UHGV virus genome: UHGV-0298370
From: a virus
DNA length: 19,287 bases
Direction: 5' to 3' (one strand)
Position 1 is the first letter of the stretch, and every line of letters begins with the position of its first letter. The notes beneath the pieces are model-generated. The model was not told the origin of the DNA and searched no databases. It saw only the letters and a list, made by a program, of their open reading frames with translations. Below, one piece after another: positions 1,747 through 19,287 of the stretch. The translations under genes were made by a program, and so were the position numbers.

Positions 1747-3144
1747 TCACCCTCCTATAGCAACATAACAGCCCGATACAGGATTTGCGGCAGTCGCTAC
1801 GCTGGAAAAACCACGAAAGCCGCTTTTTGTGATTGCGGAGGCAGATAGTATTCCGGCACCCGAAGGTGTATGCCCCACGTGGCTGGCAACCATCACGTAG
1901 CACGCCGACGGAAAAGCGAAAGGGAAATTGTTTAAATATCCCGCATCATCCCCCAGACTTCCCCCAAACTGCCCCACTCCCCACTGGATAATAAGTGGTC
2001 TCCGAACGCCAGAAATAATTAATGGAATTGCTACATACCCATTCACCAACATAGCGCCGGTTGTTGCGCCAGCCAGAGCCAATTCCCCCAAACCAAGGTA
2101 TGTGAGAAGACCAGCTACATCCTTTCCACTCAAATTGGTAAGCGTATTGTCCAGCGGTTGTTTACCTGCCAGCGCATTAAGCATTGTCGTGGCAAAGTTC
2201 GGATCATTCCCCAGTGCCGCCGCCAGTTCGTTCAGTGTATCCAGTGCAGCAGGTGCAGAACCCACCATTCCTGCAATCGCCGATTTCACAAAAGCCGTAG
2301 TGGCAATCTGTGTATTGTTGACCGACTGCGCCGCCGTGGGGGCTGTTGGCGTTCCGGTGAGTGCCGGACTCGACAACGGTGCTTTTAGTGCCAGCGCATT
2401 GTTAATGGTGGTACTGAAATTCGGATCATTGTTAATGGCTGAGGCTATTTCTTTCAGCGTGTCCAGCGTGGCTGGCGCACCATTAATAAGGGCCGTCAGT
2501 GCCGCCTGTACAAACGCAGTGGTCGCAACCTGCGTGGTATTATTCCCCGCCGCTGGCGTTGGCGCTTTGGGGGTTCCGGTAAATGTCGGGCTGGCTTTTG
2601 GCGCGTACTGTGAATGCGGGTCCGGTGCGGCAAGATGTTTTGCCATCTGATCATCCGCGTACACCTTCAGCTCCAGTGCCTTGTCATCCACATACTTGCG
2701 GGTTGCCAGCACTACAGCAGGGTCGATTTTCAGGGTGATATTGTCCGTACTGCTGGTAATCAGCACCATGCGCACGGTCTGAGTGCGCCCGCTACCTTCA
2801 GCCAGTTGCGGCTTATAGCTTTCCGGGCAGTTGCCCACGGCAATCAATGCCCCGGACTCATCAAACAAGCCCACTTCACGTATCCACCAACCGCCCTCGT
2901 TTTCAGGGATCACCTGTTCGGCAATAATCTGGCTGCTGTTCTGCGGGTCGATATAAAGCATATTCAGCGCAGCCCGGCGTTTCTCATTTACCAGTGCCGT
3001 CTGCTTTGCGTCCGGCGTTGGCAATACTCCACCGCCATCGCCCACCGCCATATGGGTAATTTTTAGCGGCACACCGAGCGCGGCGGCGCTGGCAAGTTTC
3101 GCCGCGCCAATATCCGTCAGCAGGGTATAAAATTTTGTGCTCAT
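1747..3144 (-). CDS. H: tail fibre protein gpH
   Basis: 465 aa; N-terminus MSTKFYTLLTDIGAAKLA...MAVGDGGG...AVGNCPESYKPQLAEGSGR closely resembles P2 gpH N-terminal constant region; internal ATTAFV/NDPNF repeats typical of the family; ATG start, ATGA overlap with gpI. Confidence 0.9.
   Translation of the reverse strand: MSTKFYTLLTDIGAAKLASAAALGVPLKITHMAVGDGGGVLPTPDAKQTALVNEKRRAALNMLYIDPQNSSQIIAEQVIPENEGGWWIREVGLFDESGALIAVGNCPESYKPQLAEGSGRTQTVRMVLITSSTDNITLKIDPAVVLATRKYVDDKALELKVYADDQMAKHLAAPDPHSQYAPKASPTFTGTPKAPTPAAGNNTTQVATTAFVQAALTALINGAPATLDTLKEIASAINNDPNFSTTINNALALKAPLSSPALTGTPTAPTAAQSVNNTQIATTAFVKSAIAGMVGSAPAALDTLNELAAALGNDPNFATTMLNALAGKQPLDNTLTNLSGKDVAGLLTYLGLGELALAGATTGAMLVNGYVAIPLIISGVRRPLIIQWGVGQFGGSLGDDAGYLNNFPFAFPSACYVMVASHVGHTPSGAGILSASAITKSGFRGFSSVATAANPVSGCYVAIGG
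2152..2589. repeat. internal tandem duplication inside H (two ~73-codon units)
   Basis: Protein residues ~186-257 and ~258-331 repeat the pattern TGTP.APT.AA..NNTQ.ATTAFV....APA.LDTL.E.A.A..NDPNF.TT..NALA.K.PL; visible as repeated DNA blocks. Confidence 0.6.
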
Positions 3145-3746
3145 GGATTCACTCTCATTGTGTCAATAACATGGACCGCCCCGCCTTCATGCGCGGTGCC
3201 ACCGGAAATAATCGTTTCGTTGATATACGGATAGATCGTGATTTCTTCGCCAAGATAGCTGGCGGCTCCCACCCAATGCGGGCCGCTGGTCTGCAGATTG
3301 ATGGACATGCCGATCATGTGGCGGCTACATGGTTTGGCATCGCTTATCAGTCGCTCAAGTTCCAGATAGGTATCTTCAGTGATGCCCTGGTCCTGCACGC
3401 CGATATCCAGGCGAAACGTGCCCGGTGTTTCTCCGGTCTGCCACCACTCAATAATGCGGATCAGGAATCCGAACGGTTCCACCACCCGCCGCACGGCACT
3501 GGTGGTTCCTTTATGCTGATGAATATAAAAAGCATCCTTCACTACCTGGCGTTTGACGCTTTCTGTCCAGCCCTCGTCCCAGCGATCCACAGAGAACGCC
3601 CAGGCGAGATAAGGCAGGAAGCTGACCGGACAGGTAGCCGGATTCCACAAGTCACGCAGCGGCACCTGCAAATCAGAAATCCCGCTACAGGTTTGCGCAA
3701 GTCGGCGCTCCAGTGAAGTTGAACCCAGTGGCAGCAGACTATTCAT
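3141..3746 (-). CDS. I: baseplate assembly protein gpI
   Basis: 201 aa; ...LWNPATCP..LPYLAWAFSVDRWDE.W....KR.V..DA...H.HKGT..A.RRVVEP.G....I.EWW....PGTFRLDIGV...GITE..Y.E.ERLI.DAKP.SRH.IG closely matches P2 gpI; ATG start. Confidence 0.9.
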   Translation of the reverse strand: MNSLLPLGSTSLERRLAQTCSGISDLQVPLRDLWNPATCPVSFLPYLAWAFSVDRWDEGWTESVKRQVVKDAFYIHQHKGTTSAVRRVVEPFGFLIRIIEWWQTGETPGTFRLDIGVQDQGITEDTYLELERLISDAKPCSRHMIGMSINLQTSGPHWVGAASYLGEEITIYPYINETIISGGTAHEGGAVHVIDTMRVNP

Positions 3747-4647
3747 CCGTTCCTCCGTTGGTTACGCTCCACTGCGTACATGATGCCGCCTGTGTTTTGT
3801 TCAGGACCACATCCGCCAGCGGAGAAGCCAGTTCCACACGTTGAACACCCTCAACATGCAGAGCAGCAAAGATGGCGCTACGGCGAATATCCCGACCAAG
3901 CCTCGTCTGGCTGGCAATGTACTTCTGCAGACTGGCTTTTGCCGCTGCCATTACCGGCTCTGCTTCCGGTCCCGGATAGAGAAAAATGGTGGCTTCCACG
4001 CGATACGGGATGATTTCTGCACTGCGAACCGTAAGACGGTCAGCCACCGGGCGGACGTTCTCACTGTTCAGGGCTTTTTCCACCACGTCCAGCAGGTCTT
4101 TTTCTGCAGTTCCATCGCCTTCGCGGCTCAGGACAGTCAGCACCACCTCTGCAGGTGCCGGGCTGGTTGCACTGGCATCCGCCACCCGACCGTCGGCGCT
4201 TCGGGCATGAAATTCATAAGCTGCAGTTGGCCCCGCAACTGAAAGCCCCTCAAAGGCTGCAGGCACACGCAGGCGTAACGCTTCATCGCTTTCCATCACT
4301 GCTGCCACGGGCGGCACAGCGTCATTATCAGCAGGCGTCACCGTCAGGCGTTTCACGTTGTAGTTGGCAGCGATCTGGTCAAGATCGCCGCCCATCGCGT
4401 AAGCCACCATTACCGCCTGCGCGGCTTCATTAATGCGCTGGCGCAGAAGCAACTCACGGTAAGCGTTCTCCTGCAACAATTTGGTGACGGGTTCAGATTC
4501 CAGTTCCAGCGTGCGGATCACTGCTTCCTGCTCATCTTTCGGATGAAGCGCCACAAATTCTGCCTTGCGTTCGGCAAGCAGCGTCTCAAAGTCCGGCACA
4601 TCCACAATCTGCGGTGCAGGCAACTGCGAAAGGTCAATCACTGCCAT
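3739..4647 (-). CDS. J: baseplate assembly protein gpJ
   Basis: Start chosen at ATG (MAVIDLSQLPAPQIVDV...) with AGGAG SD 7 nt upstream, rather than the upstream in-frame codon of the ORF track; strong similarity to P2 gpJ throughout (…GRDIRRSAIFAALHVEGVQRVELASPLADVVLN…). Confidence 0.9.
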   Translation of the reverse strand: MAVIDLSQLPAPQIVDVPDFETLLAERKAEFVALHPKDEQEAVIRTLELESEPVTKLLQENAYRELLLRQRINEAAQAVMVAYAMGGDLDQIAANYNVKRLTVTPADNDAVPPVAAVMESDEALRLRVPAAFEGLSVAGPTAAYEFHARSADGRVADASATSPAPAEVVLTVLSREGDGTAEKDLLDVVEKALNSENVRPVADRLTVRSAEIIPYRVEATIFLYPGPEAEPVMAAAKASLQKYIASQTRLGRDIRRSAIFAALHVEGVQRVELASPLADVVLNKTQAASCTQWSVTNGGTDE

Positions 4648-4993
4648 TCTCTGCTCCTGTTGATACTGAAAGGGACACAGGCACACCGTTATTCCGCCGT
4701 CCGGTCAGCTCCACCACCATTGAACCGTCAAAATTGCTGTTAATAGTGATGGAATCCAGCGTCAGCCGTGGCTCCCAGCGACTCAGTGCAACATACACAG
4801 CCGACATGACCTGCAGGCGTAATGCCGGATTTTGTGGCTGATCTATCAGTGCAGACAGCAGGGAACCATATTCCCGGCGGGCAATACGGCTACCCTGCGG
4901 TGTCAGCAGAATGTCCCGCACCGACTGGCGCAGATGATCAATATCAGTAATGACTTTGCCGCTGGTATTGTTCATCCCGCTATAAAGCGTCAT
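4634..4993 (-). CDS. W: baseplate protein gpW (gp25-like)
   Basis: 119 aa; MTLYSGMN...ITDIDHLRQSVRDILLTPQGSRIARREYGSLL..LIDQPQNPALRLQ resembles P2 gpW; ATG start, overlaps J start. Confidence 0.9.
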   Translation of the reverse strand: MTLYSGMNNTSGKVITDIDHLRQSVRDILLTPQGSRIARREYGSLLSALIDQPQNPALRLQVMSAVYVALSRWEPRLTLDSITINSNFDGSMVVELTGRRNNGVPVSLSVSTGAENGSD

Positions 4994-5568
4994 ACCGGGC
5001 CTCCGGTTGTATCGCCGCCTTTCAGGACGCCAGTATGCTGATGCGCATCAACCACGATCCCGTTAGAACTCATCGCTCCGCCGCCCTGGGTAACGCCACC
5101 ATTGATCACCACTTCGCTGTTAATGCGCGTGCGGTCAGCCTCCAGTACAAACTCACTGGTTTTCATGGTGATGTTGTCAGCAGCCTCAATGACCATTGAT
5201 TTGATGCCCCTGACATACCAGCGCCCGGTGGCGGGTTCGTATTCAAACCAGCCACCGTCAGGATGTTCTGTCACGCAGGCATCCGCCGACGTCGACGGTG
5301 GTGCGAACTGATTCGAATAGACAGCGGGCAGCGCAAAGGCGGTTTCCAGATTGCCGCCCAGACTCAGCAGCACCACCTGCTCACCTTCCGATGGTCGCCA
5401 CCATGTACGGGCATTCCCGGCACGCAGCGTCAGCCAGCTGATCCAGTTGGTTTCAAGCTCGCCCGTTTTCACCCGGCAAAGCCAGTTTTCCCTGTCCACT
5501 TCGGTGACTACCCCTGTGCGGATCAGGTTGGTGATAAGGCGCATGATTTCGGTTAATTGTGCGTTCAT
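4990..5568 (-). CDS. V: baseplate spike/assembly protein gpV
   Basis: 192 aa; ...WLTLRAGNARTWWRPSEGEQVVLLSLGGNLETAFALPAVYS...GGAMSSNGIVVDAHQHTGV matches P2 gpV; ATG start; ATGA overlap with W. Confidence 0.9.
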   Translation of the reverse strand: MNAQLTEIMRLITNLIRTGVVTEVDRENWLCRVKTGELETNWISWLTLRAGNARTWWRPSEGEQVVLLSLGGNLETAFALPAVYSNQFAPPSTSADACVTEHPDGGWFEYEPATGRWYVRGIKSMVIEAADNITMKTSEFVLEADRTRINSEVVINGGVTQGGGAMSSNGIVVDAHQHTGVLKGGDTTGGPV

Positions 5569-5614
5569 AGGGAAAGGTTGCCATCAGGGGAAGAAAGGCG
5601 GCAGTGCTGCAACT

Positions 5615-5632
5615 TGTATCAGTGCTGATACA
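5615..5632. promoter_or_regulatory. Ogr/Delta-type late promoter activator box (TGT-N12-ACA), likely P_V
   Basis: Perfect palindromic TGTATCAGTGCTGATACA in the 68-bp S-V intergenic gap; P2-family late promoters carry TGT-N12-ACA upstream of the start site. Box centre is ~55 bp upstream of the V ATG. Confidence 0.55.
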
Positions 5633-5636
5633 AAGA

Positions 5637-11586: not shown

Positions 11587-13353
11587 ATGAACACCACACT
11601 GACACCCGCAGATCTCGATCCCCGTCGGCAGGCCATGCTGCTGTACTTTCAGGGATACCGCGTAGCCCGCATTGCTGAAATGCTGGGCGAGAAAGTTGCA
11701 ACCGTTCACAGCTGGAAAAAACGCGACAAGTGGGGTGACTATGGGCCGCTGGATCAGATGCAGCTCACCACCGCCGCACGCTACTGCCAGCTCATTATGA
11801 AGGAGCACAAAGAAGGGAAAGATTTCAAAGAAATTGACCTGCTGGCGCGCCAGTCGGAGCGCCACGCGCGGATCGGCAAGTTTAACAATGGCGGTAACGA
11901 AGCCGACTTAAACCCTAACGTCGCCAACCGCAACAAAGGCCCGCGCCGTCAGCCGGAAAAGAATGTTTTCACCGATGAACAGATTGAGAAGCTGGAAGAA
12001 ATTTTCCATTCCTCCATGTTCAACTACCAGCGCCACTGGTGGGAAGCCGGAAAAACCAACCGCATCCGCAACCTGCTGAAGTCACGCCAGATCGGCGCGA
12101 CCTTTTACTTTGCCCGTGAAGCCCTGATTGACGCCCTGCTTACCGGACGTAACCAGATTTTCCTTTCTGCCAGTAAGGCACAGGCTCACGTCTTTAAGCA
12201 GTACATCATAGACTTCGCCAAAGAAGTCGAGGTGGAGCTGAAAGGCGATCCGATGGTGCTTCCTAACGGAGCCACGCTTTACTTCCTCGGCACCAATGCC
12301 CGCACGGCCCAGAGTTATCACGGCAACCTGTATCTGGATGAATATTTCTGGATACCGAAATTCCAGGAGCTGCGCAAAGTGGCTTCCGGTATGGCTATTC
12401 ACAAAAAATGGCGACAAACCTATTTTTCCACGCCATCCAGCCTGACACACAGTGCTTATCCGTTCTGGTCCGGTGCGCTGTTCAACCGTGGGCGCAACAA
12501 GGCCGACAAGGTGGACATCGACCTGTCCCACAGCAATCTGGCCCCCGGCCTGCTGTGCGCAGACGGGCAATACCGCCAGATAGTCACCGTGGAAGATGCG
12601 GTGCGCGGCGGCTGTAACCTGTTCGACCTTGACCAGTTGCGCATGGAGTACAGCCCGGACGAATACCAGAACCTGCTGATGTGCGAGTTTGTGGACGATC
12701 TCGCGTCCGTGTTCCCGCTCAGCGAGCTGCAGGCGTGCATGGTGGACAGCTGGGAAGTCTGGACCGACTTTCATGCACTGGCTCTGCGCCCGTTTGGCTG
12801 GCGCGAAGTGTGGATCGGTTATGACCCGGCAAAAGGTACGCAAAACGGCGACAGCGCCGGATGCGTAGTGGTGGCACCGCCAGCCGTGCCTGGTGGTAAG
12901 TTCCGCATTCTTGAGCGTCACCAGTGGCGTGGGATGGACTTCCGCGCCCAGGCTGACGCCATCAAAAAACTGACCGAGCAGTACAACGTGACCTACATCG
13001 GCATCGACTCGACAGGTGTCGGCCACGGGGTTTACGAGAACGTGAAAGCGTTTTTTCCAGCCGTCCGGGAGTTTGTCTATAACCCCAATGTTAAAAACGC
13101 CCTGGTACTCAAGGCCTACGACATTATCAGCCACCGCCGTCTGGAGTTTGACGCCGGACACACCGACATAGCGCAGTCATTCATGGCAATCCGTCGCGCC
13201 ACCACCGCGAGCGGCAACCGCCCAACCTATGAAGCCAGCCGCAGCGAAGAAGCCAGCCACGCCGATCTGGCCTGGGCAACGATGCACGCACTGTTTAACG
13301 AACCGCTGCAGGGCGAATCCGCCAATACCAGCAATATTGTGGAGATTTTTTGA
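11587..13353 (+). CDS. P: terminase ATPase (large) subunit gpP
   Basis: 588 aa; N-terminus MNTTLTPADLDPRRQAMLLYFQGYRVARIAEMLGE... and body match P2 gpP; divergent from O as in P2. Confidence 0.95.
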   Translation: MNTTLTPADLDPRRQAMLLYFQGYRVARIAEMLGEKVATVHSWKKRDKWGDYGPLDQMQLTTAARYCQLIMKEHKEGKDFKEIDLLARQSERHARIGKFNNGGNEADLNPNVANRNKGPRRQPEKNVFTDEQIEKLEEIFHSSMFNYQRHWWEAGKTNRIRNLLKSRQIGATFYFAREALIDALLTGRNQIFLSASKAQAHVFKQYIIDFAKEVEVELKGDPMVLPNGATLYFLGTNARTAQSYHGNLYLDEYFWIPKFQELRKVASGMAIHKKWRQTYFSTPSSLTHSAYPFWSGALFNRGRNKADKVDIDLSHSNLAPGLLCADGQYRQIVTVEDAVRGGCNLFDLDQLRMEYSPDEYQNLLMCEFVDDLASVFPLSELQACMVDSWEVWTDFHALALRPFGWREVWIGYDPAKGTQNGDSAGCVVVAPPAVPGGKFRILERHQWRGMDFRAQADAIKKLTEQYNVTYIGIDSTGVGHGVYENVKAFFPAVREFVYNPNVKNALVLKAYDIISHRRLEFDAGHTDIAQSFMAIRRATTASGNRPTYEASRSEEASHADLAWATMHALFNEPLQGESANTSNIVEIF

Positions 13354-14060
13354 TGCCCCCAATCCCAACTAACCTCATGACTATCGCGGGACTTCCGGTG
13401 GATAGCTTTTTCTTTGCTTACCAGTATGAGTGGAACACTGGCCCAAAGAGTAGAAACCGTGTACTCACAAAAATGCGCCAGGCAGGCGCGGATTTCTTTT
13501 TTTCCTATGAAGCCCTGAACGATGCACTGCATACCGGGCGTAACCAGATTTTCCTCTGCTGCAGCACAGCATCTGCGCAGGCAATCAAAGCCTGTGTATC
13601 AGCATTCTTAAGCCAGGCCGCAGCTTATACGCACACTGGAAAAATAAAATCAGGCAAAAGTCATCTGGAGCTTCCGAATGGTGCAGTAATTTATTTTACC
13701 GACCTCAGCAGTCTCACCTCCGCACTCAGTGGAAATGTTTACGTGTCAGAGTATGCCTGGAGTGAATCACCGAGAAATATGATTGCCATCGCTAAAGGGA
13801 TTTCTATGCACGCACACTACCACGCCACCTACTACACCACTCCCAGCCCTAACCCAGAGGCACGGCAGGAATATAAAAAGCTATGCAGAAACAACAGCGT
13901 AACCAGCATGGTGTTCACCGCAGATGACGCAGCAGCATCTGGAGCAATGTTGTTTACTGATAACTGGCTGAACGATATGAAAAAAGAATTATCAGAAGAG
14001 GACTGGAAAATGCTGTTTATGTGCGAATGGCCTCTCGCTAGCAAGGAACTGGCAGAATGA
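13353..14060 (+). CDS. terminase-ATPase-like paralog (truncated, diverged copy of gpP central region)
   Basis: ATG at 13353 overlaps the P stop (TGATG) and its stop overlaps the Q start (ATGA). Protein aligns by eye to gpP residues ~140-400 (FAYQYEWNTGPKSRNR / FNYQRHWWEAGKTNRIR; EALNDALHTGRNQIFL / EALIDALLTGRNQIFL; GNVYVSEYAW / GNLYLDEYFW). A 24-nt stretch at 13532-13555 is 23/24 identical to 12141-12164 in P. Confidence 0.6.
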   Translation: MPPIPTNLMTIAGLPVDSFFFAYQYEWNTGPKSRNRVLTKMRQAGADFFFSYEALNDALHTGRNQIFLCCSTASAQAIKACVSAFLSQAAAYTHTGKIKSGKSHLELPNGAVIYFTDLSSLTSALSGNVYVSEYAWSESPRNMIAIAKGISMHAHYHATYYTTPSPNPEARQEYKKLCRNNSVTSMVFTADDAAASGAMLFTDNWLNDMKKELSEEDWKMLFMCEWPLASKELAE

Positions 14061-15085
14061 GCAAACGTAAAAACACCAAGCAGGTAACAGTTGATCACGA
14101 CACAAAACCAAGCAACGGCCCAACGGCTGAGGCTTTCAGCTTTGGTGATCCCATCCCCGTGCTGGACCGCCGCGAACTGCTGGACTATGTGGAATGCGTA
14201 CAGATGGATCGCTGGTATGAGCCGCCCGTCAGCTTTAATGGACTGGCGCGCACCTTCCGCGCCGCCGTGCATCACAGTTCCCCGATTGCAGTAAAGTGCA
14301 ACATTCTGACCAGTACCTATATCCCTCATCCGCTGCTTAGCCAGCAGGCTTTTTCGCGTTTTGTGCAGGACTATCTGGTATTTGGTAACGCCTACCTGGA
14401 GAAACGCACGAACCGCTTTGGTGAAGTTATCGCCCTTGAGCCAGCTTTGGCAAAATACACCCGACGCGGATTAGACCTGGATACCTACTGGTTTGTGCAA
14501 TACGGTATGACAGCCCAGCCGTATCAGTTCACGAAAGGCAGCATTTTTCATCTGATGGAACCGGACATCAACCAGGAGATCTACGGCCTGCCAGGTTATC
14601 TTTCTGCCATCCCGTCAGCCCTGCTCAACGAGTCCGCCACACTGTTCCGCCGTAAGTATTACATCAACGGCAGCCATGCAGGTTTCATCATGTACATGAC
14701 CGATGCCGCGCAGAACCAAGAAGATGTGAACAACCTCCGCAACGCAATGAAAAGCGCCAAAGGGCCAGGCAACTTCCGCAACCTGTTTATGTACTCTCCT
14801 AACGGCAAAAAGGACGGGCTTCAGATTATCCCGTTGTCAGAAGTCGCGGCGAAGGATGAGTTTCTGAATATCAAGAACGTGAGTCGGGACGACATGATGG
14901 CGGCACACCGTGTGCCGCCGCAAATGATGGGGATAATGCCTAATAATGTTGGGGGCTTTGGAGATGTAGAGAAGGCGAGTAAAGTATTTGTACGTAATGA
15001 ATTATTGCCATTGCAAAAAAGATTACAAGAAATAAACAATTTCATAGAAGAAGGTGTTATTGAATTCCAAGAATACCATTTCTAA
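14057..15085 (+). CDS. Q: portal protein gpQ
   Basis: 342 aa; ...EAFSFGDPIPVLDRRELLDYVECVQMDRWYEPPVSFNGLARTFRAAVHHSSPI...NESATLFRRKYYINGSHAGFIMY...NGKKDGLQIIPLSEVAAKDEF... matches P2 gpQ. Confidence 0.95.
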   Translation: MSKRKNTKQVTVDHDTKPSNGPTAEAFSFGDPIPVLDRRELLDYVECVQMDRWYEPPVSFNGLARTFRAAVHHSSPIAVKCNILTSTYIPHPLLSQQAFSRFVQDYLVFGNAYLEKRTNRFGEVIALEPALAKYTRRGLDLDTYWFVQYGMTAQPYQFTKGSIFHLMEPDINQEIYGLPGYLSAIPSALLNESATLFRRKYYINGSHAGFIMYMTDAAQNQEDVNNLRNAMKSAKGPGNFRNLFMYSPNGKKDGLQIIPLSEVAAKDEFLNIKNVSRDDMMAAHRVPPQMMGIMPNNVGGFGDVEKASKVFVRNELLPLQKRLQEINNFIEEGVIEFQEYHF

Positions 15086-15087
15086 TT

Positions 15088-15118
15088 AAAAAAAAGGGAG
15101 GCAACCTCCCTTTTTTTT
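15088..15118. terminator. bidirectional rho-independent terminator between convergent Q and cargo gene
   Basis: A8-GGGAGG-CAA-CCTCCC-T8: 6-bp GC stem, 3-nt loop, flanked by A-run and T-run so it reads as a terminator on both strands; overlaps the TAA of the minus-strand cargo gene. Confidence 0.75.
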
Positions 15119-16883
15119 AAACATTATCGTATAACTCTTGTATTTTCGTTGGATTTGCAAAAAATCTTGCCGGATAGGCATTCGGGTAATTATCTTCAAT
15201 GTACTCTTCAGCACGTTGAATTAATGCACTTAATTCTTCGGAAAGATTTTTTTCATCTGGAACAAGAATTTCTGAGCTATTATGTATCCCAGAAACGTTG
15301 CTCAATAGTACAGACGCATAGTATCTATTACCATGCGTAATAATTAAATGCTTGCGACTATGGGTCGTTTTATCTACTGATAGTAATGTTTTACCGATCA
15401 ACTTATCTATAACTCTAAAATGTAGAACAGTATTGATAAGTTTTAAACCACTTAATCTTGGATTGAAAATAGTTTTATATAGAGAGCCTTCAAAATTTTC
15501 AAAAAACCTACCGCGATTTGATTTTAGTGTCGATACAACCGTATTATTTTTACTTAAACATGCGAGTGCATTGAGCGCCTCATCCAAGTCAATGACTTTC
15601 GTATTTGTCTGTGAATGATCTTCATCTGTTCTTAGTAACTGATATTGATATCCTTCAAGCACTAACTCCCTTGCCAATCTATGTTGATCTGCCTGCTGCG
15701 ATGCAAAATCTCTTCCCAATACTCTATTTTGGAAATTGTTAGCTTTTGTAATTGCATTTGCAGTTAAATTATCAGTATCATCATCTATAACAATGAATCT
15801 AGCTGGCACTTTGAGTCTATATATGTTTTCACCAAGCGCATCTTTACATGCGCCAATACTACTGACTGTTTGTGCACCATTAATGACACTTACATCACGA
15901 AAATCAAAAATCCCTCTCTCTATATTAGGAGCTGCGTTTCGTCTATGAGGAACAACTTCCTTAACCAGTACAGTAATCCCATTATTATAAAACCAAAACA
16001 TATCAGGATTATCTATAGCTGTCTTTTTTATTTCCTCATTCACTTCTGTTTTACCAAGCATATTCCTTATGTTTTTTGTAAATAATCGAGCACCATGCTC
16101 TTCCCACCATTCTGCAACTTGATCACCACTAATAGCCCCGTAAAAAGCTTGATATGGTTCATTCAAAAATCCAAAACGCTCAATTTCAACCCTGTTAAGA
16201 TCAATTTGATTTCGAGAGCCATTCTGTAACCAATGCATCATATCTTCAGAGGATATTAAATGAACCTGAAATCCCCAGTTCTCTTTAGGCTCATCCTCAG
16301 GTGTAAAAGCTGCAGCGTTTAATTGATATTGCCATTCCCGCATATCATTTAATATTTCCTCTGCAGCACCTTTTTTACCTGTATGCGCCATCGCAAAGAT
16401 GAACTTGTATTCAAAACTACTTAAAGCCGCACTTATTTCCCCGCTTTTATTTTGCAATATGGAATCAAATAATTCGTATCTTTCACTTTGTAGCTTCTCA
16501 CAAGCATCCTTAAAACACATAAAATCGGCTCTTGTCCAAGTGCCGTTTCCCGATTGGTGAAATTTTGATTGAACAACAACAACGATTTTTTCGTTATGGT
16601 TGATTGCTATTCCATCTATACCACCATCTTCACTACTATCACATACAGACTCCCCTGCATACTTATCATCCACACATCCTAACTGATACATAGTGAATGC
16701 AGCTAAAGCCCTGCTAGCCATTTTTACATCATAGTCTGCTTGGCCTGGTGCACACTCTCTTTTATGGATGAATTCTTCATATCTCTTACGTAATACAGAT
16801 CCTAGCCTCTGAGCCATAACCTGTGCTGTCGCAGGTGCAGCAATAGCATTATCTTCAAGCCGAATATCAGTTACAAAAGCCAC
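15117..16883 (-). CDS. Mrr-type nuclease-domain protein with AIPR-like architecture (candidate abortive-infection/defence protein)
   Basis: Long AT-rich ORF; start uncertain (TTG 16940 without SD, GTG 16883 with GGAGGG SD, ATG 16817). N-terminal motif SEDGGIDGIAINHNEKIVVVVQSKFH resembles the Mrr catalytic PD-(D/E)xK core (D-G-G-I-D ... Q-x-K). Size and layout are reminiscent of AIPR-family proteins; not verified by HMM. Confidence 0.65.
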   Translation of the reverse strand: MAFVTDIRLEDNAIAAPATAQVMAQRLGSVLRKRYEEFIHKRECAPGQADYDVKMASRALAAFTMYQLGCVDDKYAGESVCDSSEDGGIDGIAINHNEKIVVVVQSKFHQSGNGTWTRADFMCFKDACEKLQSERYELFDSILQNKSGEISAALSSFEYKFIFAMAHTGKKGAAEEILNDMREWQYQLNAAAFTPEDEPKENWGFQVHLISSEDMMHWLQNGSRNQIDLNRVEIERFGFLNEPYQAFYGAISGDQVAEWWEEHGARLFTKNIRNMLGKTEVNEEIKKTAIDNPDMFWFYNNGITVLVKEVVPHRRNAAPNIERGIFDFRDVSVINGAQTVSSIGACKDALGENIYRLKVPARFIVIDDDTDNLTANAITKANNFQNRVLGRDFASQQADQHRLARELVLEGYQYQLLRTDEDHSQTNTKVIDLDEALNALACLSKNNTVVSTLKSNRGRFFENFEGSLYKTIFNPRLSGLKLINTVLHFRVIDKLIGKTLLSVDKTTHSRKHLIITHGNRYYASVLLSNVSGIHNSSEILVPDEKNLSEELSALIQRAEEYIEDNYPNAYPARFFANPTKIQELYDNV

Positions 16884-16985
16884 AGTCCCTCCATAAAGAC
16901 ATCTGGTACAACTCAATGCTGGGAATAGTGCACATTTCAATGAGATAAATCCACTAATAATCTAGGATTTATGAGTTAGCGCGCG

Positions 16986-17004
16986 CTCGTATCCCCGCCA
17001 CGCC
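16986..17004 (-). other. putative cos site (cohesive-end sequence) of the P2-like phage
   Basis: Minus-strand sequence GGCGTGGCGGGGATACGAG followed by CGCGCGC resembles the P2/186 cohesive-end sequence as I recall it (P2: GGCGAGGCGGGGAAAGCAC TGCGCGC); orientation is correct, with the 5' end pointing toward Q. Depends on my recollection of the P2 cos. Confidence 0.45.
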
Positions 17005-17053
17005 TGCCCGCTTTGTGTAGTGGTTTTCATGCAGGTGCCTGATCCACGCAAAA

Positions 17054-17073
17054 GCCCGCCAGTTCTGGCGGGC
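17054..17073 (-). terminator. probable rho-independent terminator downstream of the DUF2971-like gene
   Basis: GCCCGCCAG-TT-CTGGCGGGC hairpin; on the minus strand it is followed by TTTTGCG; lies ~70 bp past the stop of the minus-strand gene 17140-18258. Confidence 0.5.
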
Positions 17074-17139
17074 CTTAGCAAAAACGATCCTCAAACGGTC
17101 ATGCAAATTCAGGCAGCATAGGCATGCACTGTTGTTAGG

Positions 17140-18258
17140 TTAGTTCGTAATGCCAATTTCCTTCAAAACTTTAGCCATTTCCGTCTGACTTAACTTGTTC
17201 CTGAACAAAGGGAAATTTTTCATTTTTTCCGCTCGTTGCCCTTTTGAAATAGTAATCTTTCCTGATGCTGATAACTCAGAGTCAAAAAAATAACATATTG
17301 TTGAATTTGAATTCTCCATATTTGACTTGATACAATTCCATATGCTTTCTTTTTTCATTTCACACATTCTAGGACCAAAAATGATCCCTTTAACAACATT
17401 AGCATCATGATGAAAAATATGTCCAATATTTCGATTTACGCGTCTTTGAACATGCCGCTCACTCCCTATTCCTGCATTTGCCTCTGGAATAAACATTCGA
17501 TATTCAGCTTCATATCTCCAAAATCTATTTTTAGTTAAAAATAACTCTGCAACATTTGCGCTTGGGTCTAGAAGTGAAACCTCTTTAGCCTGATTACTAT
17601 ATTTTATTTGCTTAACTGGAAAATTAAATTTATCTGATGAAAATAAATTTTCTCTTAGCTTCATTCCAGGATGTGGCACGCCATTAATATTAAAATCCTG
17701 CGTTTCATAAATCACAACACAACCACTAAAGCCTGCAGCATAATGCGCCCACATCATACGATCTAACGCATTAGCTGAAAATGACACACTGAATACTGCA
17801 GGAACTATTTTCCTATACAACCTTTCTTTGATACTGTTCTCGCAAAGTGAGACCAAAAATTGGCGTGGTTCAGGAATATTCCCATAAATAGCGGAATTAA
17901 TCACATTGATAGGTAGTAAACCATCATTTATGATCTTACGTATCTCATCAACGTGTGAGTCAAACAGGCTATCTAATGACTCAATGCTACTTTTTATTTT
18001 TTTTCCTCTAAAAATACGATTCAATCCCTTATGTATCTTCAAATTACTCAAATCTAATATGTGACTCAAATTTTCATAGGATTTATCGCAAGGAGAACGC
18101 AATAAAATATCCCATAATTTCAATTTATTATCAAAACGATAATCTATATTGAGATCATTAGGATCATTCAATTGCGCAGGAGCGGAAAAATATAATTCAT
18201 TATAACGAATAGCTTTCTCGAAGAAGAAGTCCGGACGGTAATACTTGAAAAGATACAT
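17140..18258 (-). CDS. DUF2971-like protein (candidate defence-associated protein of unknown mechanism)
   Basis: 372 aa, AT-rich; N-terminus MYLFKYYRPDFFFEKAIRYNELYFSAPAQLNDPND matches the hallmark DUF2971 N-terminal pattern (KY..........LYFS.P..xNDPxD); ATG start; terminator-like hairpin downstream. Confidence 0.7.
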   Translation of the reverse strand: MYLFKYYRPDFFFEKAIRYNELYFSAPAQLNDPNDLNIDYRFDNKLKLWDILLRSPCDKSYENLSHILDLSNLKIHKGLNRIFRGKKIKSSIESLDSLFDSHVDEIRKIINDGLLPINVINSAIYGNIPEPRQFLVSLCENSIKERLYRKIVPAVFSVSFSANALDRMMWAHYAAGFSGCVVIYETQDFNINGVPHPGMKLRENLFSSDKFNFPVKQIKYSNQAKEVSLLDPSANVAELFLTKNRFWRYEAEYRMFIPEANAGIGSERHVQRRVNRNIGHIFHHDANVVKGIIFGPRMCEMKKESIWNCIKSNMENSNSTICYFFDSELSASGKITISKGQRAEKMKNFPLFRNKLSQTEMAKVLKEIGITN

Positions 18259-18712
18259 GACATTACCTATAACATTGCAATATTAACAACCGTATGAAAA
18301 CGGTTTGATTGTATTGATAATATCCTATTCTGCATATACCACAGTGTAAAGATTAATTTTAAATACCATATCCAACAGTAAATCATGTATCGACCGCCAG
18401 ATAAGAAGCTTTTGAAAAACTTGGACAATAATTAATCAAAAGGTAAGAGATACTCTTCAAATACATGACGTTGGCTTCCTCTTTCGTGATAACTATCAAG
18501 ACCAAGTCCATTAGATAATGGACATCAAATATTCCAAGTCAATCCAAGAACAATCATCATAAGCTCTTCCCATCCTGTATCCTCTATCTCACTCTTTTGG
18601 ACATTGAAAGAAGCCCCTCTGACCGGGAATGATTGTTTCCAGCGTTTGACCACGATATACAATATGATATTTGATGTCTTTTGATCAGATGGCTAACGCC
18701 TCGCACAGCTCG

Positions 18713-18852
18713 TTGTTCAACCTTGCTGACGCCAGAAGCAAGTTCAGACGCCAGCAACGTTTCTTAATGCAGCCAGCTGTCGTCTTCCCACACCTTCTGC
18801 ATAATTTTCATCACTTGTTTTCTTTCTTCGTCCAGTTGCAGTCCGGTCAGTT
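18713..18852. repeat. direct repeat copy A (140 bp, truncated 3' gene fragment)
   Basis: 140 bp with 2 mismatches to 19148-19287; contains a minus-strand frame ending ...LTGLQLDEERKQVMKIMQKVWEDDSWLH-stop (stop 18765-18767) that is closed by a stop ~38 codons upstream, so this copy is a fragment. Confidence 0.7.
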
Positions 18853-19147
18853 CAACACCATTAGAGCTACCTTTACGGGCTGCAAATTACCTTTTGGGAT
18901 TTGTGATAGATACGAAAATCCTATTAGATGCTTGTTAGACCGGAAGCGCCACTTCGAACGAAAAGTAATGGCCACTTATGCCGGTTTAAAAGCCTTAACC
19001 TTGTATAGTTATTTGAATATTTTCTTCATTAACACCAAAGTATAGGGCTAGCCCTGCTTTTGCCTCCTGAAGTGTTAACGGCTTAACTACATTTTCTTCT
19101 TCTTCTTCGTACTCATCACCCCCCATGACTAATGCCCCACTAAACTA

Positions 19148-19287
19148 GTTGTTCAACGTTGCTGACGTCAGAAGCAAGTTCAGACGCCAGCAACGTTTCT
19201 TAATGCAGCCAGCTGTCGTCTTCCCACACCTTCTGCATAATTTTCATCACTTGTTTTCTTTCTTCGTCCAGTTGCAGTCCGGTCAGT
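19148..19287. repeat. direct repeat copy B (140 bp, continues beyond window end)
   Basis: Matches 18713-18852; truncated by the window edge. Confidence 0.7.
19200..19287 (-). CDS. 3' end of a gene entering from beyond the window (C-terminus ...LTGLQLDEERKQVMKIMQKVWEDDSWLH)
   Basis: Open minus-strand frame running off the window edge, stop codon TAA at 19200-19202; identity unknown. Confidence 0.4.
   Translation of the reverse strand, partial: LTGLQLDEERKQVMKIMQKVWEDDSWLH

Follow-up and report, generated by a model that had tools for sequence, protein, structure and literature searches.

Results

Organization of the locus

The DNA analysed here (the window) is a stretch of 19,287 nucleotides which sequence comparison identifies as an E. 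coli prophage of the P2 type (Peduoviridae, Elveevirus-like). It most closely matched E. coli chromosomes, at 99.6-99.8% identity over Q and the junction described below, and further close matches were found among Peduoviridae phages of Klebsiella and Escherichia. The locus sits between the portal gene gpQ and the replication endonuclease gene gpA of this prophage and, in the integrated state, Q faces the packaging site cos. The window and locus L003, to which it is 99.9% identical, both have the gene order P-Q-cargo-cos-cargo-DinI-like-(A). The features of the locus are the following:

11587-13353, plus strand: terminase large subunit P, 588 aa, a core gene 5' of Q (open reading frame; RefSeq annotation of L003; GC3 0.70)
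13350-14060, plus strand: extra terminase-domain ORF, 236 aa, between P and Q
14057-15085, plus strand: portal Q, 342 aa (open reading frame)
14057-14977, plus strand: Q body, codons 1-307, assorting with the core genes of the phage (Pfam Phage_portal, phrog_68; GC3 0.64)
14933-14965, plus strand: patch of AT-ending codons in the Q body, conserved in all relatives
14971-14983, centred on 14977/14978, plus strand: recombination junction inside Q, after ...GDVEKA
14978-15085, plus strand: Q tail, 35 codons and the stop codon, encoding SKVFVRNELLPLQKRLQEINNFIEEGVIEFQEYHF (GC3 0.20), in the left-arm cassette
15086-15120, both strands: bidirectional intrinsic terminator, detected by folding, part of the cassette
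15117-16883, minus strand: cargo gene, predicted AIPR/AbiU-like abortive-infection protein, 588 aa from the ATG (GC 0.37)
16884-16978, minus strand: AT-rich leader of the cargo gene, cos-proximal end of the cassette
16979-17004, minus strand: left genome end, 19-nt cohesive end plus CGCGCGC, the invariant anchor that bounds the cassette
17005-17130, no strand: rest of the conserved GC-rich cos region, on the side of the right genome end, conserved whatever the cargo
17140-18258, minus strand: DUF2971 gene, right-arm cargo (Pfam 3e-4, borderline)
beyond 18258: DinI-like sequences

Domain matches predict an anti-phage role (AIPR/AbiU-like) for the product of the left cargo gene: it matched AIPR in Pfam (7e-35) and AbiU in PADLOC (7e-25), and it is annotated in RefSeq as 'AIPR family protein'. 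The DUF2971 protein of the right arm (GC 0.34) matched the candidate defence family PDC-S31 in PADLOC (3e-23).

The ORF at 13350-14060 corresponds to the N-terminal ATPase domain of a large terminase without the rest of the protein (Pfam Terminase_6N, 4e-16; phrog_3746, 2.5e-84), and a PADLOC search gave no match for it. Short stretches of this ORF are 73-77% identical in nucleotides to part of P, and its GC3 of 0.51 is under that of its neighbours. It is present in L001, L003 and L007 and missing from the other relatives and from P2, and the Q bodies that accompany it differ by 6-10% from those of phages that lack it. We can only guess at its function, which might be that of a terminase decoy or a role in packaging or in interference with satellites.

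At the other end of the window, a direct repeat (18689-18851 and 19125-19287) has two copies that are 94% identical and 436 bp apart. The copy at 18689-18851 is the truncated 3' half of a DinI-like (Tum-like) gene, while the one at 19125-19287 runs past the end of the window. The intervening DNA includes a 224-bp insert that contains a 43-aa ORF (18995-19126, minus strand), and L003 has no such insert. This arrangement suggests that cargo additions on the right arm also carry a 3' piece of a flanking core gene.

Composition of the 3' end of Q

The initial annotation of this DNA had described a switch to AT-rich codons near the end of Q, and the results of our composition analysis bore this out. 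A maximum-likelihood change-point on the GC3 of Q fell at 14933-14980: GC3 decreased from 0.65 in the first 294 codons to 0.24 in the last 49, and total GC from 0.53 to 0.32. The GC3 of the last 35 codons (14978-15082) was 0.20, compared with 0.25-0.26 for the AIPR gene next door. None of 3,693 windows of 35 codons each, taken from the other 19 phage genes of the window, reached the GC3 of the Q tail (minimum 0.29, mean 0.63, standard deviation 0.10; z of the tail -4.5). The peptide ...VFVRNELLPLQKRLQEINNF... is encoded at the end of Q, as had been stated. The protein does end earlier than that of P2, with 342 rather than 344 residues and a tail of 35 rather than 40 codons, but this difference is trivial, since relatives have tails of 35 to 47 codons. 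The Q tail of P2 is GC-normal, with a GC3 of 0.72 for the tail and 0.66 for the body, and P2 has no cargo left of cos, where 186 bp with a GC of 0.62 separate cos from Q.

Position of the junction inside Q

A recombination junction within Q had been proposed from 14930 onward. It does lie inside Q, but the alignment of related Q genes placed the breakpoint at about 14977 (14971-14983), some 16 codons further downstream, and so did the diversity among 48 cassettes, the change-points and the comparison of pairs. When seven Q 3' ends followed by seven different cargos were aligned, positions 14900-14976, including ATA CCT AAT AAT GTT, were common to all of them, and the sequences parted company directly after GAGAAGGC at position 14976. 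Among representatives of 48 cassettes, third-position diversity through codon 14975 was 0.1-0.35 and amino acids scarcely varied (diversity about 0), while from codon 14978 third-position diversity was about 0.6-0.75 and amino-acid changes were present. A modest rise, to 0.3-0.35 versus 0.1-0.2, was seen in the last 120 nt or so before this step. Pairwise change-points between cassettes peaked at 14964-14981. We also compared 14 pairs having Q bodies at least 98.5% identical and different cassettes; dense divergence started at 14971-14983 in 11 of these pairs and at 14863-14875 in the other three. The onset in those three lies about 100 nt nearer the 5' end of Q, so the position of the junction is not strictly constant.

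The patch of AT-ending codons at 14933-14965 reads ATA CCT AAT AAT GTT ... TTT ... GAT, and the fraction of GC-ending codons (GC3) among the 48 representatives was 0.00-0.25 at codons 14933, 14939, 14942, 14945, 14948, 14957 and 14963. These codons are kept in all relatives whatever the cargo, which puts them outside the swapped segment. The seven-sequence alignment had also given rise to the idea of a special recombination anchor at 14918-14976. This idea was dropped, because the third-position diversity of that stretch (0.22-0.35 among the 48 representatives) is no lower than that of the other parts of the Q body.

Linkage of the Q tail to the cargo

We compared the window with L002 (strain GPEC389), which carries the same AIPR gene without the extra ORF and with a different right-arm cargo. 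The Q bodies were 90-94% identical, with a last mismatch at 14917, while the segment 14918-16978, which comprises the Q tail, the terminator, the AIPR gene and its leader, was about 99.5% identical. Within it, identity was 99.1% for the Q tail (14976-15085), 99.3-100% for the AIPR gene and 100% for the leader up to 16978, and the terminator had three mismatches. In the cos region (16979-17130), identity was 83%. Identity therefore shifts abruptly at both edges of the module, from about 99.5% inside to 90-94% and 83% outside. The same AIPR cassette was thus found both with and without the extra TerL-domain ORF. In 5,426 complete E. coli genomes, the 3' end of the AIPR gene was found 12 times, each time together with the Q tail of the window.

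This linkage extends to the other cargos. For the 81 loci with a recognisable cos, tails were clustered at a nucleotide identity of at least 90%, and cargos, taken from the Q stop codon to cos, at a nucleotide identity of at least 85% and a coverage of at least 70%. The 48 tail clusters mapped one-to-one on 48 cargo clusters (ARI 1.0). The median identity of Q bodies was 0.937 for pairs having the same tail and 0.932 for pairs having different tails; Q bodies were less than 95% identical in 36 of the 57 same-tail pairs, and 10 different-tail pairs, with different cargos, shared Q bodies at least 99% identical. Since body identity is alike in both kinds of pairs and one tail can be found under divergent bodies, the association is not due to clonal copies. 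These results uphold the earlier proposal that the 3' end of Q travelled with the cargo. The cargos of the related loci are functionally unrelated, and include AIPR, reverse transcriptase, DUF4145, DUF262, helicases and ATPases. Conserved sequence able to support crossovers lies on both flanks of the module: the Q body, which is about 93% identical over about 900 nt, and the cos region described below.

Co-divergence of the tail with the AIPR gene was not apparent among more distant AIPR genes: the tails that adjoin AIPR homologues 77% identical to that of the window were 58-64% identical in nucleotides to the window tail, like random tails. In a distant P2-like phage (L096, an IMG/VR contig, 2125-5635), about 680 bp separate such a 77% identical homologue from the end of Q, which is GC-normal there, and Q is 47% identical; this arrangement indicates that the cargo can also sit outside the tail-linked architecture. 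Two further AIPR homologues, in L091 and L095, had no Q within 3.5 kb.

The terminator between Q and the cargo gene

The terminator at 15086-15120 has the perfectly symmetrical structure A8-GGGAGG-CAA-CCTCCC-T8 and is shared between the P-Q operon and the AIPR gene that converges on it. It abuts the stop codon of Q, fills the 31-nt gap between Q and the AIPR gene, and overlaps the last 4 nt of the latter. Its predicted folding energy is -19.9 kcal/mol on both strands, with z scores of -6.6 and -4.8. A scan with a consensus terminator missed the Q terminator, because its A and T runs pair with each other, while folding shows the hairpin clearly. As the terminator lies within the cassette, the P-Q operon appears to receive its terminator from whichever cassette it is joined to.

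The cos edge and the right arm

The 19-nt cohesive end, GGCGTGGCGGGGATACGAG, runs from 17004 to 16986 on the minus strand. It was placed by its match to the P2/186 cos pattern and by comparison with the annotated cosL of P2. The cassette stops at 16978, 7 nt from the cohesive end. Across 47 cassettes, the cohesive end and the next 6-7 nt (CGCGCGC) form 25 invariant nucleotides, and diversity leaps to saturation (about 0.7) from position +26, which corresponds to position 16978 of the window. All 47 left cassettes thus start at 25-26 nt from the end of the genome, and the segment 14978-16978 is the left-terminal 2 kb, approximately, of the mature linear phage genome. Around the invariant 25-nt core, the cos region of about 150 bp was 83-92% identical in all relatives, irrespective of their cargo, and its GC of 0.47-0.49 is flanked by two regions of about 0.35. 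Left and right cassettes were almost unassociated (ARI 0.06; the largest right-arm cluster, of 20 loci, may represent the state without right-arm cargo). The cos site splits the gpA-gpQ hotspot into two almost independently assorting cassettes.

Composition of Q tails among relatives

We then examined 159 distinct tail types from viral and genome contigs, which are phylogenetically non-independent. Their mean GC3 was 0.44, compared with 0.66 for the Q bodies, and tail GC3 was below that of its own gene body in 140 of the 159 types, over bodies whose GC3 spans 0.36 to 0.81. The GC3 of the tail was unrelated to that of its own body (rho 0.02) and was correlated with the GC of the next 1 kb downstream (rho 0.56, p 2e-14), a stretch that takes in cos and right-arm DNA where the left arm is short; the correlation was 0.59 when bodies with a GC3 of at least 0.6 were considered. 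In a first, smaller sample of 48 types, the correlation with cargo GC was a non-significant 0.17 (p 0.24) for tail GC3 and 0.42 (p 0.003) for total tail GC. The amino acids followed the same trend: rho with downstream GC was -0.58 for the FYMINK residues and +0.59 for the GARP residues of the tail peptide, and tail GC at codon positions 1 and 2 was correlated with GC3 (rho 0.73). The GC3 of the window tail was the fourth lowest of the 159 and lower than that of every tail seen in a low-GC host.

The scaffold residues of the tail (V-F-V-R-N-E-L, P-L-Q, N, W, I, F, Y) were almost invariant among the 48 representatives, and the tail helix is encoded at a GC3 ranging from 0.17 to 0.8 among relatives. 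In a 2026 preprint on the cryo-EM structure of P2, residues 27-340 of gpQ are ordered, no crown domain is present and the tail is left undescribed. The tail is functional, as its near-invariant scaffold and the modelling of P2 gpQ to residue 340 show. A single-sequence AlphaFold model of Q, with a pLDDT of 32, was unusable, although it hints at a possible helix at residues 304-331, and a PDB search by sequence with Q found no relative.

Search for a low-GC donor

We scanned metagenome and viral contigs and E. coli genomes for an exact 41-mer of the tail, and no low-GC donor was found. The 41-mer occurred in 12 complete E. coli genomes, three IMG/VR contigs and four metagenome contigs, only with Q bodies of the E. 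coli type, whose GC3 was 0.63-0.64 where they were intact; the four metagenome and three viral contigs all carried the same AIPR cassette. A scan of viral contigs for AIPR gave no low-GC donor either. A tail-peptide scan with one genome per species yielded 80 loci, from Haemophilus (body GC3 0.36-0.40) to Marinobacterium (0.81), and no close tail in low-GC hosts. The signature PLQKR was found in 100 of the 159 tail types, in Enterobacteriaceae and Erwiniaceae, and the window tail has it; tails of low-GC clades have PLQER in Haemophilus and PLQSK in Xenorhabdus, Photorhabdus, Providencia and Arsenophonus.

Among the metagenome contigs, L259 and L260 had the same AIPR cassette and a deletion that joins P (window position 12523) to Q (window position 14559), and are presumably defective prophages that kept the defence cargo. 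An ungapped comparison had made them look like divergent Q bodies, an assignment that was rejected since they are P-Q deletion derivatives.

Discussion

The last 35 codons of Q are probably AT-rich because they are part of a swappable defence cassette lying between Q and cos, and not of the remaining gene. Sequence comparison indicates that the segment 14978-16978, with the Q tail, the terminator, the AIPR/AbiU gene and its leader, is one exchangeable module that moves as a unit between P2-like phages, that the Q tail goes with the cargo rather than with the Q body, and that both edges are common to dozens of different cassettes. The sequence patterns suggest how such an exchange might proceed. 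P2-like genomes residing in the same cell would recombine homologously, with a crossover in the Q body, which is about 93% identical. The tails would be too diverged for crossovers, so that everything from the crossover to the genome end would be inherited together. The other limit would come from cos, either through cutting by the terminase, in which case one crossover would suffice, or through a second crossover in the cos region of about 150 bp. A tail locked for a long time to its cargo would have reached synonymous saturation relative to other tails and would have come to match the AT-rich cargo in composition, even in its choice of amino acids, and it would have kept its helix-forming scaffold residues (VFVRNEL-PLQK--(EINxW)--I-F--Y) while diverging. 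Tight linkage to long-lived, diverse cassettes would account for saturated tails beside a shallow Q body and for the slight rise in diversity before the step.

The initial annotation had attributed the AT-rich codons to a portal 3' end from a lower-GC relative. If the cargo and the Q 3' end had been imported together from the P2-like phage of a lower-GC host, AT-richness would be the composition of the donor, and the tail GC3 of 0.20 does resemble that of the cargo. P2-like phages of low GC do exist, such as those of Haemophilus, with a body GC3 of 0.36-0.40 and a tail GC3 of 0.32-0.43, and the differences among tails are as large as those between bacterial families (third-position diversity 0.6-0.75). 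However, our scans gave no low-GC Q body with the window tail, which was seen only on bodies of the E. coli type, carries PLQKR rather than the PLQER or PLQSK of low-GC clades, and has a lower GC3 than any tail of a low-GC host. Moreover, tails are AT-rich in 140 of 159 types and follow their cargo, so that dozens of separate low-GC donors would be called for. Such an import is therefore unlikely, and the proposal of a lower-GC relative was not supported. It is most improbable that the cargo was inserted 3' of an intact Q and that the tail drifted AT-rich in place, or was kept so by a local constraint such as a need for termination or for weakly structured mRNA at the end of the gene. The terminator does abut the stop codon, and Q can itself conserve AT-ending codons, as the patch at 14933-14965 shows. 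However, 99% identical tails are found on Q bodies 6-10% apart, identical Q bodies have tails more than 35% different, and the tails of P2 and other phages without AT-rich cargo are GC-normal; the comparison with L002, the association in 81 loci and the pairs with near-identical bodies refute an origin without transfer of the tail.

The portal C-terminus might also be matched to its cargo, the pair being kept together by selection and not by mere linkage, for example if the defence gene did not sense the portal of its own phage or if the tail allowed evasion of defences that sense portals. Some defence proteins (of the Avs4 type) do sense portal proteins, the tail-cargo association is perfectly one-to-one, and the variable positions of the tail alter amino acids while scaffold positions are fixed. 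We nevertheless find such a coupling very unlikely: a common dependence of functionally unrelated cargos on 35 portal residues is improbable, adjacency and the lack of homology for crossovers fully explain the linkage, and the amino-acid usage of the tail follows base composition, as predicted by mutation pressure rather than by adaptation. For the AT-richness of the hotspot as such, the candidate causes are mutation biased towards AT in rare cassettes that undergo little recombination or selection, a selection related to silencing, and a distant origin. Returning to the exchangeable module, we tentatively propose, as a possibility with the odds against it, that the cassette permanently includes the last 35-47 codons of the essential portal gene, that cassettes behave like long-lived balanced alleles whose deep divergence is shared by the linked tail, and that the codons and amino acids of the tail drifted AT-rich in place since unique cassettes escape the homologous recombination (and any repair or selection biased towards GC) by which core genes stay GC-rich.

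The window is an instance of a hotspot that is already published. Between gpA and gpQ of P2-like phages, next to cos, Rousset 2022 (PMC9122126) describes, in its accessible text, variable and mostly defence-related cargo, and speculates on an exchange involving the cos end and one homologous exchange. The place and the phenomenon are the same here, with variable cargo by cos between Q and A, and gene content varied among near-identical prophages (48 cargo types in 81 loci). The accessible part of NAR 2026 (PMC13586616) reports a linkage between core and cargo near zero at this hotspot. The putative crossover in Q and limit at cos agree with that speculation and with that near-zero linkage. In the accessible text of these hotspot papers, the limits are given as whole genes (gpQ and gpA), whereas the boundary found here is inside Q; that text has no Q-internal junction, one-to-one relation of tails to cargos or split at cos, and earlier priority is possible. 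The boundary inside Q thus appears to be an unreported detail and not a new kind of system. The hotspot of P4 satellites likewise has, in the accessible text of Rousset 2022, variable defence cargo adjoining a shared cos core, in another element and with other flanking genes, and the accessible part of NAR 2026 states that cargo is seldom exchanged between P2 and P4.

Mosaic junctions of lambdoid phages (Baker 1991; the Hendrix/Juhala picture) show abrupt changes of similarity, recombination in conserved flanks and junctions that are sometimes inside genes, at places where the protein can tolerate them. The present locus differs in that dozens of modules use one intragenic junction and that their other end is the physical end of the genome. 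An earlier account of the P2 tin/old locus as a hotspot was reportedly given by Odegrip in 2006. The E. coli gnd gene is said, after Nelson and Selander in 1994, to hitch-hike beside the O-antigen (rfb) cluster. As with gnd and rfb, part of a conserved gene is co-transferred with a diversified AT-rich cassette, and the excess diversity decays with distance; unlike the effect on gnd, which is a gradient over the whole gene, that on Q is a sharp step.

These results place the edges of cargo swaps at nucleotide resolution, at codon 307 of Q and 7 nt from the cohesive end, and a single crossover in Q together with cutting at cos would be enough for a swap. The Q tail, of about 105 nt, is a one-to-one barcode of the left-arm cargo. 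The portal C-termini of P2-like phages are chimeric and compositionally foreign, which makes Q unfit as a uniform core marker. The gpA-gpQ locus is better analysed as two cassettes, one on either side of cos, and this separation explains part of the reported combinatorial diversity (1,650 arrangements). Should the tentative proposal made above be true, the supposedly 'single' gpA-gpQ hotspot would consist of two terminal cassettes that are parted by cos and assort independently. The Q tail offers a test case for AT-rich defence islands, as the same helix is encoded at a GC3 set only by its neighbour (0.17 to 0.8). If the tail did drift in place, the AT-richness of defence islands would be due to their population-genetic regime and not to a foreign origin, and the Q tail would be a natural experiment in this process.
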